Part shown: positions 4,216 through 61,229 of the stretch, one piece after another
Numbering within the stretch: position 1 is the first letter of the stretch
Layout: the number at the start of each line of letters is the position of its first letter
Source: a virus
Taxonomy: Duplodnaviria > Caudoviricetes
Strand: one strand, 5' to 3'
DNA: 64,000 bases
IMG/VR virus record: IMGVR_UViG_3300043093_000048
Coordinates: 1 to 64,000 of that record
Position numbers and translations under genes: made by a program
The notes under the pieces: model-generated
What the model was told of the DNA's origin: nothing
Database searches by the model: none
The model's input: the letters and a program-made list of their open reading frames with translations, nothing else

Positions 4216-5256
4216 ACCGTTAGTCGTGAATAGAGTGTTCACTTGATATTCTAAACATTGAATACCATCATAAACAACCTTTTCAATTTTTTTCATAGCA
4301 TTATCAATAATTTTCTTTTTATCAACTCTTGAAATATTAATATTATTTCCAATACTATGATCAGTAGCTTCTAAATACTTATTAATATTTTCAATGCTAT
4401 CTGTATAAATAGGTAAAATCATTTCATTCCATACTTCGTCAATATCAAAATTACTATCGTCAATATCTTTTTCAAAGTTTATATAATCTTTAATTTTTTC
4501 CTTTAAGATTTTAATATAACTTTTAACTACATATGGAACTAAACCTTCATCAATTCTATTAATAGTTTGTCCACCATATTGAGAACAAGCTACGCCTTGA
4601 ATAATTTGGCTTACTAAAGTACAAGCTACATCAAAAGATTTAGGAGTTTCAATTAATGCATTACCTACAATAAATCCTTTTTCAAGCATAGTTCTATAAT
4701 CAATAAGCATACAATTATACATATTGAATAAAGGTGAATAATCTTCATCATGCCAATGAATATAGTTATTATCTCTATACTTCTGAACTCTAGGTGGAAT
4801 TAAATGAAGATCCTTAGTAATCTCTTTAGCAACCGTTCCTGCTAAAAGATCTCTTTGAACATAAAGCTTATCGGCAGCTTTATTAGCATTTTCTGCAATA
4901 ATATCTGGATCTGTATAATCTAAAAGACCATGAATCTTTTTCACTAAATTAGAACTTCTCATTCTACTAGCATCTCTAGCACCTCTGAATGATGTATATT
5001 CTCTAGCTACTTCAGGATTTTCATCCATAAGAGTAGTTTCTACAGTTCTTTCAATTTCATGAATATCAACTTCATTATCAAAGTTAATATAGATAATGTC
5101 AGATACAGTATTAGTAATATCATATGCAGTGTCTAAATCATCAATTTTATTGAGCTTAGTCATAGCTTTAATAATAGCATTTGTAATTTTATTAGGATCG
5201 AATACCTCTTTTCGACCATCTCTTTTAATTACATACAATTTTTTAATATCTTCCAT
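4216..5256 (-). CDS. nrdD: Anaerobic ribonucleoside-triphosphate reductase, exon 1 (with ATP cone)
   Basis: VIKRDGR..FD..KI..AI ATP cone, ENANK, IHWHD, NCML, QYGGQT, QVNTL. Confidence 0.95.
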
Positions 5257-7273: not shown

Positions 7274-8416
7274 TTAAACACTATCTGCATTAGAAATAAG
7301 TTTATTAATAACTTCAGTAGATACTTTCTTACCAGTTGTTAATTCAATATACTTAGCAATTGATTTATCAATAGGCAATTCTTTTTTAAATAAGAAATTG
7401 AATCTTTCATCCACTACATCTTCTGGAATATCATTATGAGTTTCAATCTTAATATCAGAAGATAATACTCCTTTTAATAAGTCTTTATTATCTTCATCTT
7501 TACTAATAATTACTTTAAGATAATCACAAGTAGTTTTTTCATTCTCAATAAACTCCAATTTTTCTTCAGTAGTTTCAAAGTTATAATCATTAATATTAAT
7601 AATTTTATAGACTGAAGCATTCTTATTCTCATAAAAGATAGCTTCTGTATCTCCAGTTTCAGGATTAATAGTAGTTAATAAGAATCCTTTATCCTCTTGA
7701 TCAGCGAAACTAAATCTTTCAAAAGATCCTACATAAATTATTTTATCTTCATCTTTATAATTCTTTTTATCATGAATATGACCAAATATTGTAAAGTAAT
7801 TACAGATATTATCAAGAGTATCTACTGAATGAACAGATTCATTTCTTCTAAGCTTCTTTTTATCTTCTTCATTTCCTGTAAAAGCTACAAAATCAATCAT
7901 TCCATGACCAAAAATCATGTCATAATTTTCTTCAGGATTGAGAAATTTATTATAATAGCTTGAATAATTTTCAGGATATTCTTCTGGAAGATACAAAATT
8001 GAATAATCGTATACTTTATTCTTACCAAATGGAATACTAATAATTTCAGTTGAAACAGTTCTGAAAATCTTAAATAATGGATATTTTACTTCAAGATGTG
8101 AAAAATTATTAAGTTGGTTATTATCATGGGATTTTGTACCATTGATAATTCTTAAATAGAAATTATATTTCTTAGATAATTCACATAATTCAGTAACAAA
8201 TCTTAATACATAATTAGCAGAAGCTTCTGTCATCTTTATAACTCTATCAAATAAATCCCCCTCTATAACAACCATATTTAAGTGATCATACTCTTTAATG
8301 ATATTTGGAATTTCTTTTAAGAAATTTTCATTCAAATCATTATATAGCTTTTTATCATTCTTCTTACCAAAATGAATATCGGCTATATTCAATACGTTAA
8401 AATTATTATTTTTCAT
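7274..8416 (-). CDS. sbcD: SbcD/Mre11-like metallophosphoesterase nuclease
   Basis: ADIHFG, GDLFD, GTKSHD, FGHG, FGHIH, YVGSFERFSF motifs. Confidence 0.85.
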   Translation of the reverse strand: MKNNNFNVLNIADIHFGKKNDKKLYNDLNENFLKEIPNIIKEYDHLNMVVIEGDLFDRVIKMTEASANYVLRFVTELCELSKKYNFYLRIINGTKSHDNNQLNNFSHLEVKYPLFKIFRTVSTEIISIPFGKNKVYDYSILYLPEEYPENYSSYYNKFLNPEENYDMIFGHGMIDFVAFTGNEEDKKKLRRNESVHSVDTLDNICNYFTIFGHIHDKKNYKDEDKIIYVGSFERFSFADQEDKGFLLTTINPETGDTEAIFYENKNASVYKIININDYNFETTEEKLEFIENEKTTCDYLKVIISKDEDNKDLLKGVLSSDIKIETHNDIPEDVVDERFNFLFKKELPIDKSIAKYIELTTGKKVSTEVINKLISNADSV

Positions 8417-9338
8417 TTTTCAAATTCTCCTTTAAAATATTTTCTATATTATCATAATCAGTATATTTAATCCTGATTAATTTAATATTCTTTTCTTTAC
8501 AATAATTATCCTTGATAGAATCTCTTCTTTGTTGAATTGAAAGATTATCGTACCAAGTTTCATTAAAATGTTGTACGCCATCGTATTCTAATAATACAAA
8601 ATTATTATCATTTAGATTTATTTTAAAATCAAATCGTAATGGGAGTTTATTCTTACAATCTGAAAAAGAAAATTGTGTTTCATAGTTATAATTATTATCA
8701 TCTAACCATTGTTTAATTTTATTTTCTCCTTTAGATGTATTACAAGCAGGACATCTTGTTCCATCATATAGAAAATGCTTTGCAGATATCCAAGATAAAT
8801 TATTACATTTATTATGTCTAATTAATATTTTATCTCTACATTGATTATATTTTGATAATACTTCATACTCATCTCCTACTAATGATTTAACTTCATTTAA
8901 GAATTCTTCATGACTTTTTCTTCGGTTTAATCCAGCTTCTTTTAAAGAGCATTTTGGACATCTATTATTATTCTTTAAAAAATCATGTGCTCTCATTCTA
9001 AAAGTACTTTTACATTTTTTATGATAAAATAAAATTTTATCAGAATTTTTAGTACCATCACTTATGTATTTTGATAGTACTTCATATTCATTTCCTACTA
9101 AATTATATACTTCTTTTATAAAGTCTTCATGACTACGTTTATATCTACCAGAACATTTTGGACACCTGCTATTATTACATAAAAAATTATGAGGTGTTAC
9201 TGAATATTCATAACCACATTTATGTTTGACTTTTAATTTGGTTTTATTATTTATATATTTATCTATAAATTCATATTCATCTCCCACTTTGTCACTAACT
9301 TCTTTTAAGAAGTCTTCATTACTTTTTCTTGCTGGCAT
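8406..9338 (-). CDS. Free-standing zinc-ribbon/EDxHD endonuclease
   Basis: Three H..C...RCPxC repeats plus SKGE...FDF...LEYDGVQHF...RDSIKDNYC; ATG 9338 with GGAGG RBS; overlaps sbcD start. Confidence 0.8.
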   Translation of the reverse strand: MPARKSNEDFLKEVSDKVGDEYEFIDKYINNKTKLKVKHKCGYEYSVTPHNFLCNNSRCPKCSGRYKRSHEDFIKEVYNLVGNEYEVLSKYISDGTKNSDKILFYHKKCKSTFRMRAHDFLKNNNRCPKCSLKEAGLNRRKSHEEFLNEVKSLVGDEYEVLSKYNQCRDKILIRHNKCNNLSWISAKHFLYDGTRCPACNTSKGENKIKQWLDDNNYNYETQFSFSDCKNKLPLRFDFKINLNDNNFVLLEYDGVQHFNETWYDNLSIQQRRDSIKDNYCKEKNIKLIRIKYTDYDNIENILKENLKNEK

Positions 9339-28989: not shown

Positions 28990-30093
28990 ATGAGTAAAAA
29001 ACTTACCAACGAAGAATATCAAACTCGTCTTAATGAAATCTATGAAGAAAACGAATATATAGTCTTAGAGGAATATAAATCCTCTAAGACAAAAATTTTT
29101 CATCTTCATACTAAATGTAATAAAAAATTTAAATCAACACCATATAATCTATTAATTAATAAATGTACCTGTCCAAATTGTAATAATATTAAAAAACATA
29201 ATAAAAGTAATACAGAAGAGTTTAAACAAAAAGTATATAATTTATATAATAATGAATATACTGTTTTAGGTGATTATATTAATAATAAAACTAAAATTAA
29301 AATGCTTCATAATAAATGTAATACCGAATTTGAAATAGCTCCTAATAATTTTTTATTAGGAAGAAAATGTCCTAAGTGTTCTAAAAGATTAAGAAAAAAT
29401 ACTGAAATAGTTAAAAAAGAAATATATGATTTATATAATGATGAATATACTTTATTAAGTGAATATATCAATGATAAAACTAAAATTAAAATTAAGCATA
29501 ATAAATGTAATAATGATTTTGAAGTTAAACCAAGTTATTTTTTAAAAGAAAATGGTACAAGATGTCCTTATTGTTTTGGATCTAAAAAGAAAACTACTGA
29601 AGAATATAAGAAAGAAGTATATAACAAAGTAAAAGATGAATATACTGTATTAGGAGAATATATTAATACAAATACTAAAATATTACATAGACATAATAAA
29701 TGTAATAAAGAATATTTAGTATCTCCTAATAAATTTTTAAATTATAATCGAAGGTGTCCTTATTGTAAATCTTCTAAAGGTGAAGAGAAAATAAGAGAAT
29801 GGTTATTAGAAAATAATATTGTATTTGAAGAACAATATTCATTTTCAGATTGTAAGAATATTAATCCTCTTAAATTTGATTTTAAAATTAATATAAATAA
29901 TTCATTTATATTATTAGAATATGATGGTATACAACATTTTGAAAATACATTTTATACTGATGATTTTGAAAAACAGAAAATAAGAGATAATATTAAAAAT
30001 CAATATTGCGAAAATAATGATTATAAATTAATACGTATTTCTTATAAAGATTATAATAATATAGTTTCTATATTAAATAAATTAATAAAATAA
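28990..30093 (+). CDS. Free-standing zinc-ribbon/EDxHD endonuclease
   Basis: Four HNKC...CPxC repeats plus SKGEEKI...LEYDGIQHF...RDNIKNQYC; immediately downstream of tRNA-Gln. Confidence 0.8.
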   Translation: MSKKLTNEEYQTRLNEIYEENEYIVLEEYKSSKTKIFHLHTKCNKKFKSTPYNLLINKCTCPNCNNIKKHNKSNTEEFKQKVYNLYNNEYTVLGDYINNKTKIKMLHNKCNTEFEIAPNNFLLGRKCPKCSKRLRKNTEIVKKEIYDLYNDEYTLLSEYINDKTKIKIKHNKCNNDFEVKPSYFLKENGTRCPYCFGSKKKTTEEYKKEVYNKVKDEYTVLGEYINTNTKILHRHNKCNKEYLVSPNKFLNYNRRCPYCKSSKGEEKIREWLLENNIVFEEQYSFSDCKNINPLKFDFKININNSFILLEYDGIQHFENTFYTDDFEKQKIRDNIKNQYCENNDYKLIRISYKDYNNIVSILNKLIK

Positions 30094-49598: not shown

Positions 49599-50516
49599 TT
49601 GAAAAAACTAAATTATGAAGATGTTAGAAATTATATTAATTCTACAGGAGAAACTTTAATCTCTAAAGAATATATCAATTATAATTTTAAATTAAATATT
49701 AAATGTAATAAATGTGGTAATATATACGGTATGAATTTAACTAATTTTAAAAAAGGAAAACGTTGTAATAAATGTGCTAAGAACTTAAGAATAAAAAAGA
49801 TGAAACTAAATTATGAAGATGTTAAATCTTTTATAAACTCTACAGGAGAAACTTTAATCTCAACTGAATATAATAATTGTAAAGAAAAATTAAATATTAA
49901 ATGTAATAAATGTGGTAATATTTATTCTATTAGATTTTGTAATTTTAAACAGGGTAATAGATGTAATAAATGTTCTATCAAAGAAAGAAATGATAATAAT
50001 AAACTTCTTTATGAAGATGTTAGAAATTATATTAATTCCACAGGAGAAGAATTAATTTCTAAAGAATATAAAGGTTGTAAAACTTCTTTACAAGTTAAAT
50101 GTAAAAAATGTAATAAAATTTATAAAGTTCGTTTTAATGATTTTAAACAAGGAAATAGATGTTCTTATTGTAAAGCTTCAAAAGGTGAAGAACGAATTAG
50201 AACATGGCTTGAAAATAATCATTATACTTTTGAAGAACAATATAAATTTGATGATTGTAAATATAAACGTTATTTGCCATTTGATTTTAAATTAGAAGAT
50301 AAGAATGGTAAAATAATTTTAATAGAATATGATGGAATACAACATTATCAAGAATCTTTTTATGGTAATAATTTAAAAGAACAGAAAAAGAGAGATTCCA
50401 TCAAAGACGATTATTGTAATTCACATGATAATATTGATTTATATAGAATTCCTTATACGGAATTTAATAACATAGATTCTATTCTTAAAGATATTTTTAA
50501 TAAATATATATTATAA
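49599..50516 (+). CDS. Free-standing zinc-ribbon/EDxHD endonuclease
   Basis: Three YEDV..INSTGE.LIS...KC.KC...GNRC..C repeats; C-terminal domain nearly identical to that of 71-1411. Confidence 0.8.
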   Translation: MKKLNYEDVRNYINSTGETLISKEYINYNFKLNIKCNKCGNIYGMNLTNFKKGKRCNKCAKNLRIKKMKLNYEDVKSFINSTGETLISTEYNNCKEKLNIKCNKCGNIYSIRFCNFKQGNRCNKCSIKERNDNNKLLYEDVRNYINSTGEELISKEYKGCKTSLQVKCKKCNKIYKVRFNDFKQGNRCSYCKASKGEERIRTWLENNHYTFEEQYKFDDCKYKRYLPFDFKLEDKNGKIILIEYDGIQHYQESFYGNNLKEQKKRDSIKDDYCNSHDNIDLYRIPYTEFNNIDSILKDIFNKYIL

Positions 50517-56209: not shown

Positions 56210-56254
56210 TAAAGAGAATAGCTAAATAAATAGCTATTCTCTTTATTTTTTTTT
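56210..56254. terminator. Probable bidirectional terminator
   Basis: AAAGAGAATAGCTA...TAGCTATTCTCTTT plus T tract. Confidence 0.7.
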
Positions 56255-56877
56255 TAGGCTTTAATAATAGATTCATCAAATTCATTATTATTCATATCTA
56301 TTAATTTATTATAATTCTCTTTAATATCTTCTGAAATATAACCTTCATATTTATTTACAAAAGCATTTATATCTCCAAATATACTTTCTAATTTAATAAA
56401 TATTTTTCCAGCATGAACTAATTCATGAGCAGTCTTTGATAATTTTACTAGACCAACTTGATTTAATTCATGAAGCTTTAATACTTCATAAGCAATATCT
56501 AAAGAAGTAAAATTTTCATTATTCATTAATCTTTTATTAATACAAATTTCTACAATATCATAAAGAGTAAAAGGATAATGATGAAATTCAAATGTAACTC
56601 CATCAATACTATCTGAAAGATTTCCAAATATAGCACAATTATGTATACCTATTTCATTATTTAAATGACCTATATAGGTTTTATATTCATTAGACATTCT
56701 TATTTGTCTTTCAATATTCTTTATAAACATTTTCATTTCTTTACTATCAGACCATTGATTAAAATAAAAACTTCCAATAATATTTTTACTATCACCTTTT
56801 CTGGCAATTACTACATCATTATCTTTATTCATAGAAATTATATTATTAACCTCATTAGGTTTATTAATCTGTTTCAT
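56254..56877 (-). CDS. Hypothetical protein with HNH-like His pattern
   Basis: C.....FEFHHYP....LVKLSKTAHELVH; ATG 56877 with AAGGAG RBS. Confidence 0.45.
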   Translation of the reverse strand: MKQINKPNEVNNIISMNKDNDVVIARKGDSKNIIGSFYFNQWSDSKEMKMFIKNIERQIRMSNEYKTYIGHLNNEIGIHNCAIFGNLSDSIDGVTFEFHHYPFTLYDIVEICINKRLMNNENFTSLDIAYEVLKLHELNQVGLVKLSKTAHELVHAGKIFIKLESIFGDINAFVNKYEGYISEDIKENYNKLIDMNNNEFDESIIKA

Positions 56878-56937
56878 TTTGTATGCTCCTTTATATAAAA
56901 TTAAGAGAATGACTAATAATTTAGTCATTCTCCTTTT

Positions 56938-57247
56938 TTAGAATCTATACTTAAAATAATTATCCATATTACTAACCACAGAATTCTTTAAGAATAATTT
57001 AAGAGTTTCATTACCTTCTTTAATTGAAAGTAATTTATTAGCTCTATCTACTTCTACATTTGAATAATCTTCATTAATATTAAAATTAAGAGATTCACAA
57101 ATAGCATTAATTCTTCTATCTTCCTTAGTTACATATTCTGCTAAATCAGCCATATTAAAATTAATAAGACCTTCATTAAGCACATTATTATCATATGACT
57201 CAGAAATAGTTCTAGTCATATAAGCTTTATCATGTGATGGAATAGTT
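56938..57247 (-). CDS. Prohead protease, exon 2
   Basis: A ACT ATT CCA TCA CAT completes DWV-TIPSHDKAY; tail rich in I/L-x-E sites. Confidence 0.85.
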
Positions 57248-57596
57248 CATTACCATCATTATTCTTCACATAAGTTCGTTAATCTTATGCAGTTCTCTTA
57301 TGAACTTCTCTAGTTTTATTTATATCTAGAGTTGAGACTATATCTTCATAGAAAATATTTCTATGCTCCCCATTTCGATTTAATCAGGAATTACTGAATT
57401 ATTACTTCATACCTGAACCACTTGGCTCTACTCTACTCTCTTCTTCAATTATTCTTTAAGAATAATTTATGATTTCGATAGTCGTTGAACGTTACAAAAA
57501 AAAACTTCTTATAAAAAGAAGCTTTTTTGTCTTCGCTGCTGATTATCCTTATATAAAGGAGTTTCCAGCAATTAAAGGAGTTTATACTGAGCAACA

Positions 57597-58715
57597 TTAT
57601 TCTTCGATTATTTCATAATTTTCATTTAAATATTTGTCTAAATTTTTAATATAATCTTCATCGTAGGAAAGTCTTAAAAGATCTTTATTATTTTCTTTAC
57701 ACCAATCATTTTTCATTTTATCATGTTTTTGAGTTAAAGATAATTTATTTTCATCTTTATACCAACCAGCTTCAAAATGTTGTTTTCCATCATATTCAAT
57801 AAGTAAATCATATTCAGTTAAGTAAAAATCAAATCTTAATAAATATTTATCTTTACAAGTAGAAAAAGTTTTTTCTTGAATATAATTTATATAATTATTT
57901 TCTAAATATTCTTTTATTTCCTTAACCGCTTTAGATTCTGAATTATGTAAATTACAACAAGGACATCTATTTCCTCCTAAGAAGTGAGTTGGTGTCATTT
58001 CAAATATATAATGATTACAATTATTACTATTATGTTGAAATTTTATTTTAGAGCTATTATTAATATAATCACTTATTACTATATATTCATCTTTAACTAA
58101 ATCATATACTTCTTTTTTAAACTTTTCAGTAGTTTTTAAGTGTGTTCCAAAACAATAAGGACATCTTCTACCACTTGAAAATGATTTTGGCTCTACATAA
58201 TAAATATTATTACATTTTTTATGACGTAATTTTACTTTAGTCTTACAATTAATATAATTACTTAATAATTCATAATCATCACCAATTTCTTTACTAAATG
58301 AATCAGTAGTTTTCTTTTTAAGCTTAGAACAATTAGGACATCTATGATTTTGATGTAAAAATTTAAAAGGTTTCATTTCAAATTCAGTATTACATTTATT
58401 ATGTTTCATTTTAATTTTATCATTAGTTGTTTTATATTCACCTAATACTTCATATTCATTTCCTACTAAATTATATATTTCTTTTTTAAATCCTTCAGTA
58501 GTTTTCTTAGGTGTTCCAAAACAATAAGGACATCTTCTACCTCTTAAAAAATCATTAGGTCTAGTTTCAAATTCAGTATTACATTTATTATGTTTCATTT
58601 TAATCTTAATTTTATTACTAACATATTCACCTAATACTTCATATTCATTTCCTACTAAATTATATATTTCTTTTACAAATTCTTTTTGTGTTTTTCTTTG
58701 TTGACAATAAGCCAT
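57597..58715 (-). CDS. Intron-encoded zinc-ribbon/EDxHD homing endonuclease
   Basis: Four H..C...RCPxC repeats; FDFYL...LIEYDGKQHF...HDKMKNDWC. Confidence 0.85.
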   Translation of the reverse strand: MAYCQQRKTQKEFVKEIYNLVGNEYEVLGEYVSNKIKIKMKHNKCNTEFETRPNDFLRGRRCPYCFGTPKKTTEGFKKEIYNLVGNEYEVLGEYKTTNDKIKMKHNKCNTEFEMKPFKFLHQNHRCPNCSKLKKKTTDSFSKEIGDDYELLSNYINCKTKVKLRHKKCNNIYYVEPKSFSSGRRCPYCFGTHLKTTEKFKKEVYDLVKDEYIVISDYINNSSKIKFQHNSNNCNHYIFEMTPTHFLGGNRCPCCNLHNSESKAVKEIKEYLENNYINYIQEKTFSTCKDKYLLRFDFYLTEYDLLIEYDGKQHFEAGWYKDENKLSLTQKHDKMKNDWCKENNKDLLRLSYDEDYIKNLDKYLNENYEIIEE

Positions 58716-58738
58716 ATTAAACACTTCCTTTCACGAAT

Positions 58739-58746
58739 ATAATATA
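58739..58746 (-). promoter_or_regulatory. TATATTAT early-type motif inside the protease intron, upstream of the endonuclease
   Basis: CGTATATATTATATTCG about 25 nt before the ATG. Confidence 0.45.
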
Positions 58747-58799
58747 TACGTAAAAGTTTAAACTAAAATTATTTTTTTAACCATCGATAATAACTTCAT

Positions 58800-59290
58800 A
58801 CCCAGTCATATGCCACAATCATTAATGGTCCATATACACGGTTATATTGTCCTTCTTGCTTAATAACATTTCCAAGTGCTCTCATAGAAAATGAAACACG
58901 AGAGCCTTGTCTAATCAATCCTCTCATGTCATAGCCTGTAGCTGTTTGTGCAGTTTCTACAATACCTTTTAAGAGGTTTCCTTCCCAACTAAGAGAAGTT
59001 ACAATATGACTAATATTTGTTTGATCTATATAAGACTGGCGGTGAATATCACTACTGAGCGGATGCCCTGCTTCGCCGAAAAAACATTTATTAGCAATTT
59101 TTTCTTTTACAGTTGGATTATTTAAAGCATCAGATAAAACATCTTTACCATAAATACGTTTATTTCTATTTGGAGCATCAGCTTCTTGAAGTATTGCTTC
59201 AAATGTAATTGATTTATTATCATCTGCTAAAATAGAAGGTGTAGAAGAATTAAATTCTTCACAAACAATAAATCCTTCACTATTATTCAT
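58800..59290 (-). CDS. Prohead core protease (T4 gp21-like), exon 1; spliced product 266 aa
   Basis: LQEAD..NRNKRIY, GEAGHP (His), SHI, SFSMRALG (Ser), AYDWV (Asp). Confidence 0.9.
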
Positions 59291-60195: not shown

Positions 60196-60302
60196 AAAAA
60201 TAATCTCCTTTATAATAAAAATAATTTGATAAATTTAATAAATATTTATCACAACTATAATATATACTTAAAAACTTTTTATTATAAGAAATAATAAAAG
60301 AG

Positions 60303-61229
60303 GTGATAACTTTGGATTATAAAACATTTTTAAATGAATCATGTAAAGATATTCAAACAGCAAGAAAATTTGTTTCTGAAGTTGGAAAATTAGCTAAAAA
60401 ATATGATGCTAATTATTTTATAGTAACTGATGGAGCTTCTGGAATTAATAATAGTGGAAATCCAGCTGTTAAAAATGCTAGAGAATGTCATATAAAATGG
60501 GAAAAAGAAAATGGTGGAGATCCTTATGAAGATTGGGGAAAAAATGAATCATATGATGAATTATATAATGAAACATTAGAAACTTCTGTAACAAGACCTT
60601 TTCTTTCTAAAGATGTAACACTTTATCATGGTTCTAAGATAAAATATAAAAATGACGTAATAGATCCTAGATTTGGTGCTATTAATATTGGCACTAAATT
60701 ATCGAGTCCTAGATATTCTTCTTGGTGGACGACAGATAAAATTTTCCCATTATTCAGTTCAGCACAAACAGTATTAAGAAAATTATTATGTAAATATATA
60801 GATAATAAAGAAGATTTTGAAAAAGCTTATGTTCTTGATTTTAAAAATAGAAAATTTTATATTAATCAAAAATATAAAGATTTAATTGATTGGAATTTTT
60901 CTAGTGAAAATTATCTATATCAAGTTACTGTTCCAAGAAGAATTGTTGGAAGAGGACATAATATAGAAATTGATGAATATACTTTAGATCAGCCAATTAA
61001 AGCTGATAAAGTTAAATTAATTAAATTAAAAGATTTAAAACCTTTTATAGAATTTAAAGATGAATCTTTTATTATATTAAAAATTAAAGAATTTGAAAGT
61101 AGTCATGCTACTTATAAGCCAACAGTTATGGATAAAATGATTTATTATAGTAATGATGAAATGAGAAAAATTAGAAAAGATTATAGAAAGAAATTTGGTT
61201 ATTTAACTGATGGAGAATTTAAATATTAA
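60303..61229 (+). CDS. Putative head-packaged protein with ADP-ribosyltransferase-like motifs
   Basis: FLNE-S and LYNE-T sites; TLYHGS...SWWTTD...YLYQV...DEY pattern; likely start TTG 60312. Confidence 0.4.
   Translation: MITLDYKTFLNESCKDIQTARKFVSEVGKLAKKYDANYFIVTDGASGINNSGNPAVKNARECHIKWEKENGGDPYEDWGKNESYDELYNETLETSVTRPFLSKDVTLYHGSKIKYKNDVIDPRFGAINIGTKLSSPRYSSWWTTDKIFPLFSSAQTVLRKLLCKYIDNKEDFEKAYVLDFKNRKFYINQKYKDLIDWNFSSENYLYQVTVPRRIVGRGHNIEIDEYTLDQPIKADKVKLIKLKDLKPFIEFKDESFIILKIKEFESSHATYKPTVMDKMIYYSNDEMRKIRKDYRKKFGYLTDGEFKY

Follow-up and report, generated by a model that had tools for sequence, protein, structure and literature searches.

A predicted mobile group I intron with a homing endonuclease gene interrupts the prohead protease gene of an AR9-like jumbo phage

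The stretch of DNA analysed here, which we refer to as the window, is the first 64 kb (64,000 nucleotides) of the 265,109-bp IMG/VR virus record IMGVR_UViG_3300043093_000048 (genome G000; G+C content 24.8%), a record that is rated complete by CheckV. On its minus strand lie two protease open reading frames (ORFs) that are separated by an endonuclease ORF and 350 nt of non-coding sequence (Table 1). This arrangement is very probably a single S77 prohead protease gene that is interrupted, after the codon for its catalytic Asp, by a mobile IA2-type group I intron carrying an endonuclease gene, and from the sequence we infer a scheme for how splicing and timing might operate at this locus. Several RNA-polymerase-beta-like subunits are encoded in the record, and the nearest cultured homologues of the protease belong to the Staphylococcus jumbo phages MarsHill, Madawaska, Machias and PB50 (the closest, at 45-46% identity), Listeria phage LPJP1, and Bacillus phages AR9 and PBS1 (38%). 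These features indicate that the source is an uncultured AR9/PBS1-like jumbo phage, whose host is probably an AT-rich Gram-positive bacterium.

Exon 1 matches the Pfam family Peptidase_S77 (PF03420; E 3.4e-12, 46.7 bits against a cut-off of 27) and the PHROG families of head maturation proteases. It carries His (GEAGHP), Ser (SFSMR) and Asp (YDWV) motifs and aligns to the structure of T4 gp21 (5JBL), an enzyme whose catalytic triad consists of His, Ser and Asp (PMC5694885). The protease Ser falls one column off the T4 Ser in the HMMER alignment. When the intact homologue P0010 is compared with T4 gp21, YDWVTIPS lies opposite VDAVWGPS, and the Asp lies opposite the Asp of DAVWGPS. Judged by its sequence, the gene encodes a T4 gp21-type (S77) prohead protease. 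The first of its ORFs (59290-58796, 164 residues) ends ...AYDWV and is followed by TGA. The exon 2 frame, from 57246 to 56941, reads TIPSHDKAYMTRT...YRF, of which the ORF lister picks up only the ATG-started portion (57219-56938). Exon 2 aligns with the C-terminal part of the intron-less homologues P0002, P0004, P0005 and P0010, in which the Pfam S77 match reaches profile position 194-196 of 198, and once the exons are joined, the 266 residues that they encode are collinear with these homologues. The insertion point lies 5 nt past the Asp codon, inside the Val codon that follows.

The position of the splice junction can be read from alleles that lack the insertion. Exon 1 ends GAC TGG GT, and unspliced RNA continues with GTA and then TGA at 58798-58796 (intron bases 2 to 4), so that its translation would halt directly after DWV, just as the first-pass annotation of this DNA had proposed. 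The last intron base is G57248 and exon 2 begins AACTATTCCATCACAT, which yields the joined reading D-W-V-T-I-P-S-H. Database searches were made with single exons and natural intron-less homologues as queries, and the search with exon 1 returned two kinds of close homologue, uninterrupted and short. Specifically, P0002, P0004, P0005 and P0010 (267-269 residues, 82-89% identity) read ...YDWVTIPSH(D/P)KAYMT... without a break, whereas nine proteins of 166-183 residues stop 2-20 residues past YDWV, with tails that are all different. Similarly, the DNA of five uninterrupted alleles (L008, L009, L038, L041 and L042) reads GACTGGGT, then T or A, then ACTATTCC. Because these five alleles read through ...YDWV-TIPSH..., the predicted junction TGGGT^AACTATT is correct. 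They and the collinear 266-residue product agree with the earlier proposal that excising 57248-58799 restores DWV-TIPSH, and the gene calls of relatives, which are fragments of 164-183 residues, bear out its remark that the two protease ORFs would otherwise be annotated apart.

Precisely the same phosphodiester bond is interrupted in related contigs by insertions of different lengths: 379 nt in L001/L010, 1401 nt in L002/L003, 1353 nt in L004, 1040 nt in L005/L006, 383 nt in L007, and 1552 nt in the window. Every insertion is preceded by U and terminated by G, and the terminal G is kept in all six versions. The contigs of P0006, P0007, P0012 and P0013 stop within or just past exon 1 and contributed no intron sequence. 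Among the relatives, the site is found empty, occupied by an intron alone, occupied by an intron with an endonuclease gene, and occupied by an intron with a decayed endonuclease gene. With intron versions and empty sites both represented, this one site in natural populations displays the whole homing cycle.

The insertion has the hallmarks of a group I ribozyme. When the core is searched alone, the Rfam family Intron_gpI (RF00028) matches 57619-57316 with 43.3 bits (E 7e-10). Two ORF-less versions at the same site score above the Rfam threshold, namely L001 (75 bits) and L007 (56.3 bits), and the latter is closely related to the window (protease 99% identical; intron 92.6% identical over 353 nt). 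A structure drawn by hand on an alignment of five versions comprises P10, P3, P4, P5, P6, P6a, P7 (forming the pseudoknot), P7.1, P7.2, P9, P9.1 and P9.2. In this structure 94.3% of the cells are paired, compared with 37-43% when the partners are slid by 1-3 columns, and pairs changed on both sides number 21 compared with 2-4 in the slid controls. P3 is fully compensated in L005, where CAAUCC/GGAUUG replaces CUCCUU/GGGGAG. The stretch that separates the 5′ strand of P7 from the 3′ strand of P3, roughly 105 nt long, contains two hairpins with five and three double-sided changes. These are P7.1 and P7.2, and by these hairpin features the intron belongs to the phage IA2 type. The structure returned by RNAalifold mispaired the guide sequence and P3, because exon 1 is missing from the alignment and because P3 and P7 form a pseudoknot, and the hand-drawn structure was used in its place. 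Together, the core, the U.G pair at the 5′ splice site, the terminal G, the covariation of P1 and P10, and the existence of ORF-less and intron-less alleles uphold the original identification of the element as a group I intron, and self-splicing is predicted.

The guide sequence and its target are far apart. P1 comprises 7 bp whose strands lie 1208 nt from each other across the endonuclease ORF, with the wobble pair U58800-G57592 at the splice site. In L001/L010 the Asp codon is GAU and the guide is GCUCAAU, a compensating change from C-G to U-A within P1, and in every version the guide sequence lies 4-5 nt 5′ of P3. P10 also covaries, being GUU/AAC in the window, GUG/CAC in L001 and L004, and GUU/GAC in L005, such that two of four pairs change on both sides. 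Thus, the pairing of GCUCAGU with a partner, ACUGGGU, some 1.2 kb away, as first proposed, is supported by complementarity and by covariation. An alternative guide sequence was sought by eye near the 5′ end of the intron, and none was found there.

Comparison with the ORF-less L007 reveals where the endonuclease gene is lodged. In L007, the splice site and the guide are separated by some 50 nt, which fold into a 13-bp hairpin that stacks on P1. Of this version of the intron, the window retains 25 bases at the 5′ end and 351 at the 3′ end, and the 22 nt at the hairpin tip are replaced by 1175 nt. The two distant pieces of P1 and its extension still pair in the same place, with a two-strand fold of -19 kcal/mol, and the 3′ strand of the extension is still formed, now by the terminal endonuclease codons AUA AUC GAA GAA UAA. 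By this comparison of sequences, the endonuclease gene took over the terminal loop of an extended P1 hairpin, and given the L007 hairpin and the fold energy, the earlier description of an endonuclease insert of about 1.2 kb inside P1 is accurate.

Table 1. Features of the split protease locus. Positions are those of the window, given 5′ to 3′ on the strand indicated.
Feature	Position	Strand	Remarks
Terminator-like hairpin	59401-59367	minus	closes the gene upstream of the protease
Late-promoter-like motif AACA-N6-TA	59331-59320	minus	predicted start A59320, 30 nt 5′ of the protease ATG
Protease exon 1	59290-58800	minus	164 codons; ends ...AYDW + GT of the Val codon
P1, 5′ strand ACUGGGU	58806-58800	minus	U58800 is the last exon base; U.G pair with the guide
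Group I intron	58799-57248	minus	1552 nt; boundaries from intron-less alleles, U.G pair and terminal G
P1 extension, 5′ strand GUUAUU.UCGAU	58794-58783	minus	two-strand fold
Early-promoter-like motif TATATATTAT-N6-G	58748-58732	minus	predicted endonuclease start G58732
Homing endonuclease gene (predicted)	58715-57597	minus	372 codons + TAA
P1 extension, 3′ strand	57608-57596	minus	shared with the final codons and stop codon of the endonuclease gene
Internal guide sequence	57595-57586	minus	GUU 57595-57593, P10 with exon 2 AAC; GCUCAGU 57592-57586, P1
Ribozyme core P3-P9.2, including P7.1/P7.2	57582-57248	minus	Rfam match and hand-drawn structure
P3	57580-57575 with 57371-57366	minus	
P7	57483-57478 with 57341-57336	minus	
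Protease exon 2	57247-56938	minus	A of the Val codon, 102 codons TIPSHDKAYMT...YRF, then TAA
Terminator-like hairpin	56934-56903	minus	directly after the protease stop codon

The protein encoded within the intron consists of four tandem 63-residue treble-clef zinc-finger modules (Pfam DUF4379) followed by a 127-residue C-terminal nuclease domain, and it matches PHROG 559 (E 5e-95). A search of PDB sequences and of NCBIfam gave no match for the endonuclease, and the sequence-level match of its nuclease domain to Pfam DUF559 is weak (E 0.027), so that a fold search was required. The AlphaFold2 model of the C-terminal domain has a pLDDT of 85.5, and its top Foldseek match is the homing endonuclease I-Bth0305I (3R3P; probability 1.00, TM 0.51/0.65, although E is only 6.7e-3), followed by the Vsr structures 1CW0 and 1VSR. 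Residues D51, E62, D64, H68, D87 and K90 are invariant in 18 paralogues, giving the pattern D, E-x-D-G-x-x-H, D-x-x-K. The model and these residues identify the enzyme as a predicted homing endonuclease of the EDxHD/Vsr-like (I-Bth0305I) type. Conserved catalytic motifs such as the one interrupted here are typical homing targets (PMC3239194). In L004 and L002 the same loop houses an orthologue (48% and 39% identity, respectively); only fragments remain in L005, and L001 and L007 have none.

The two N-terminal zinc-finger modules (window 58356-58684) share 86% DNA identity and by this measure are a recent internal duplication; in the L004 and L002 orthologues the modules are fewer or more diverged.

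The two genes are preceded by different promoter-like motifs. In phage AR9, experimental mapping has established the consensus AAATATATATTAT-(6N)-G for early promoters and AACA-(6N)-TA/G for late promoters (PMC5312081). The motif ahead of the protease gene fits the late consensus, and the motif upstream of the endonuclease gene, where TATATTAT lies at 58746-58739, fits the conserved TATATATTAT-(6N)-G core of the early consensus. Both motifs recur in the genome. An extended early motif, TATATTATA-N3-4-RTG, is found 24 times, whereas the reversed sequence used as control contains it once; of the 24 copies, 13 lie no more than 150 nt before a called gene. The late motif AAC[AT]-N3-TATTATA is found 10 times compared with four in the control; nine of these sites are followed, at a distance of 37-100 nt, by a gene that a crude, ATG-only gene caller identified (eight of them at 37-44 nt), and the tenth, at 60273 on the plus strand, lies 30 nt before a GTG-start ORF at 60303. 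The early-type motif sits before genes for the DNA polymerase, two RNA-polymerase subunits, two other endonucleases and the endonuclease of the protease intron, whereas the late-type motif sits before those for the protease, a virion structural protein and a 911-residue RNA polymerase (RNAP) beta subunit that resembles the beta subunit of the virion RNAP. Because the motifs recur before different classes of gene and agree with the consensus sequences of early and late promoters in AR9, separate early and late timing of the endonuclease and the protease is plausible by analogy, and the assignment of an early-type motif to the former and a late-type motif to the latter at first pass is retained. 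Moreover, the terminator-like hairpins on both sides make the split protease gene look like its own transcription unit.

Additional RNA structures near the endonuclease gene deserve mention. A hairpin at 58756-58728 (minus strand) flanks the promoter-like element, and its 3′ arm holds both the ribosome-binding site of the endonuclease gene and G58732, such that only long (late) transcripts could use it to hide the ribosome-binding site. This hairpin is weak in the window (z -1.1), strong in L004 at 4532-4573 (16 bp, z -4.9), and absent in L002. Some 90 nt past the endonuclease stop codon, the P6a hairpin (57513-57492, minus strand) is followed by nine U residues and thereby resembles an intrinsic terminator, which might end early endonuclease transcripts. 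L001, L002 and L004 likewise have a run of U after P6a; L007 does not.

We propose that the locus would operate as follows. Late in infection, the non-virion RNA polymerase would start at the AACA-N6-TA motif and transcribe the whole unit. The long-range P1 would then form and the RNA would splice itself, and only thereafter could the 266-residue protease be made; RNA that remains unspliced would yield a product of 164 residues, missing the 102 at the C-terminus. At the early stage of infection, the virion RNA polymerase would start at G58732 within the intron, and the resulting endonuclease mRNA would be without the 5′ splice site. The endonuclease would cut intron-less protease alleles of co-infecting relatives, and repair would copy the intron into them.

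How well does this scheme withstand the evidence that weighs against it? The 43.3 bits of the window's core fall short of the Rfam gathering score of 50, and the core was missed in a 3.3-kb search as well as in a search of the whole window at the gathering threshold. In the comparison with the group I covariance model that the first-pass annotation suggested, the gathering score is exceeded by the ORF-less alleles, and the core of the window matches the model with a score below it. P2 is not evident in any version, and the separation of 1.2 kb between the 5′ splice site and the guide could slow folding. The protein collection holds no full-length product that is more than 90% identical to exon 1, and a degenerate junction pattern found only three matches in JGI metagenomes, all of them intron-less alleles of other lineages, and no spliced RNA-derived contig. 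Regarding promoters, the flank of the endonuclease motif is ACG where the AR9 consensus has AAA, a deviation at two upstream positions, and the AR9 virion polymerase is reported to be sensitive to one such change, which can abolish activity (PMC5312081). The promoter classes themselves were assigned by analogy with AR9, a phage whose protease is only 38% identical.

The promoter evidence bears on the possibility that the intron is real while its endonuclease has no timing of its own, with TATATATTAT-N6-G being inactive or coincidental and the enzyme being made from late precursor RNA or never. In addition to the two deviating positions, AT-rich motifs are common at this G+C content, and the orthologous endonuclease gene of L002 is without an early motif. 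The excess of the extended motif over its control and its frequent placement shortly before called genes argue otherwise, as do other upstream-deviating copies in the genome that also precede genes, a paralogous endonuclease gene (8406-9338) that also has the motif, and the precedent of AR9 g190 described below. We regard this alternative as unlikely, but it is one that carries real weight. If, instead, the insertion splices poorly or not at all, the protease would be broken and the phage would be defective or reliant on the truncated 164-residue protease. Although the sub-threshold Rfam score, the 1.2-kb span of P1 and the lack of a spliced product on record all fit this possibility, the core keeps all of the pairings of its threshold-passing counterpart in L007, with the differences lying in the peripheral P6a, exon 2 is open and conserved, the same architecture exists in L002 and L004, and the genome is complete by CheckV. 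We therefore judge defective splicing to be quite improbable. We attach scarcely any credence to the absence of an intron, whereby a free-standing endonuclease gene would lie between two genes, or the protease would be translated as two separate pieces. Gene callers do give products of 164-183 residues in many relatives, and exon 2 has an in-frame ATG; this internal ATG, however, has no ribosome-binding site ahead of it, a full group I core with a terminal G and covarying P1 and P10 lies between the endonuclease gene and exon 2, and ORF-less versions of 379-383 nt occupy exactly the same site.

A further function for this intron is conceivable, although we consider it doubtful. The endonuclease could be a weapon as well as a selfish passenger, and its translation and the splicing of the protease could be mutually exclusive on each RNA and separated in time. 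Such exclusivity would follow from the location of the gene in the P1 loop, from the participation of its last codons in the extended P1, and from the hairpin, by which long transcripts can conceal the ribosome-binding site of the gene. If the enzyme cleaves the protease gene at the Asp codons in co-infecting relatives that have no intron, it may block the maturation of their heads, in a manner similar to that of the intron endonuclease gp210 of phage PhiPA3 (PMC11620839).

At first pass it was taken as known that the group I introns of phages are found mostly in genes of DNA metabolism. This statement is dated, given the introns in the protease genes of AR9 and Staphylococcus jumbo phages. 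The coding sequence of the AR9 prohead protease gene g114 (GenBank KU878088) is annotated as a two-piece join, and is split by an intron like the gene in the window; PBS1 is a further case. AR9 and PBS1 share with the window the same gene family and a phage group with two multisubunit RNA polymerases, and the core of the g114 intron is visibly related to the one described here (AATTGCTGG, GTTCAACGACTATC and GATATAGTCTCAACTCTAG). In contrast, the g114 intron is located at the catalytic His motif (between GEAG and HP), is about 340 nt long, and is without an endonuclease gene. The prohead scaffold/protease gene is likewise disrupted by introns in jumbo phages of Staphylococcus, namely MarsHill, Madawaska and Machias (bioRxiv 10.1101/2020.12.14.422802), and fragmented prohead protease genes have been reported in gut jumbo phages (2026 paper). 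Staphylococcus phage PB50 (L037) carries two mini-introns in this gene (1708-1871 and 2139-2318), one between GE and AGHP and the other between YD and WV; the latter lies between codons 5 nt upstream of the insertion site in the window, and is about 180 nt long with no ORF. These mini-introns (about 165-180 nt) keep P4, P6 and P7 and little else, and Rfam does not detect them at E <= 0.01. The GenBank record of PB50 labels the protease exons 'terminase large subunit' and 'homing endonuclease'.

The nested arrangement of genes has a precedent in AR9 g190, an endonuclease gene with an early promoter inside the intron of the late gene g189, which encodes the virion RNAP beta subunit (PMC5312081). 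As in the window, an early-promoter endonuclease gene is nested in the intron of a late gene, with the same promoter consensus sequences; the host gene differs, however, the AR9 enzyme is an HNH endonuclease with an AP2 domain, and the timing was measured in AR9 whereas here it is predicted. I-Bth0305I, the founder of the EDxHD family, is encoded in a recA group I intron of Bacillus phage 0305phi8-36 (PMC3239194, PDB 3R3P). Like the window enzyme it is intron-encoded, comes from a phage of a Gram-positive host and targets a critical motif of its host protein (a predicted target for the window enzyme), but the two share only 22% identity over the nuclease domain, and the N-terminal half of the window enzyme is composed of the four DUF4379 modules. 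The classic phage IA2 introns with endonuclease genes are those of T4 td, nrdB and nrdD (sunY). These resemble the window intron in their IA2 core with P7.1/P7.2, in an ORF that is looped out, in a stop codon shortly past the 5′ splice site, and in the expression of the ORF separately from the host gene. They differ in that the T4 ORFs lie in the loops of P6 or P9.1, within early nucleotide-metabolism genes, and have late promoters, whereas the window ORF lies in the P1 loop, within a late structural gene, and has an early-type motif.

The locus is a clean example of a kind of intron that is already known from the protease genes of related giant phages. It leaves the current understanding unchanged, and its interest is the modest one of a well-documented addition. 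For annotation, the lesson is practical, in that the protease of this phage clade is routinely called as a fragment of 164-183 residues together with an orphan ORF of about 95 residues, and these should be joined. Taken with AR9 and PB50, the locus shows that introns have repeatedly struck jumbo-phage head proteases at their catalytic His and Asp motifs. It also offers a test case for ribozyme folding with 1.2 kb of coding RNA between the 5′ splice site and the guide.

Related elements are abundant elsewhere in the genome. The EDxHD/Vsr-like nuclease domain occurs in about 20 copies in the 265 kb, including four in tandem at 85.0-87.9 kb; examples lie at 85003-87888 and 122961-123320 of G000, and at 95-439, 8436-8762, 29752-30045 and 50151-50486 of the window. 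One paralogous intron (G000 122475-123580) has a core that is 84% identical to that of the protease intron, but its endonuclease domain lies between the P4 and P6 parts rather than in P1, which suggests that related introns acquired their endonuclease genes in different loops. For the group I R element TTCA[AG][AC]GACTA there are 11 matches in G000, nine of which have an S element 131-179 nt downstream. The matches lie at 223439, 199252, 197770, 144797, 144097, 141129, 123339, 95350, 94082, 57489 and 155203, the last with an R element only. From these paired elements, the genome holds about 10 IA2-like introns; the intron cores in it that are related to the protease intron number about 11.

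The gene 3′ of the protease (window 56254-56928, minus strand) probably starts at an internal Met at 56877 (MKQINK...), which has a good ribosome-binding site, rather than at 56928; the longer version of this ORF overlaps the terminator hairpin of the protease gene. This gene belongs to PHROG 12252, and its paralogue at 257347-258105 bears a late-type motif.

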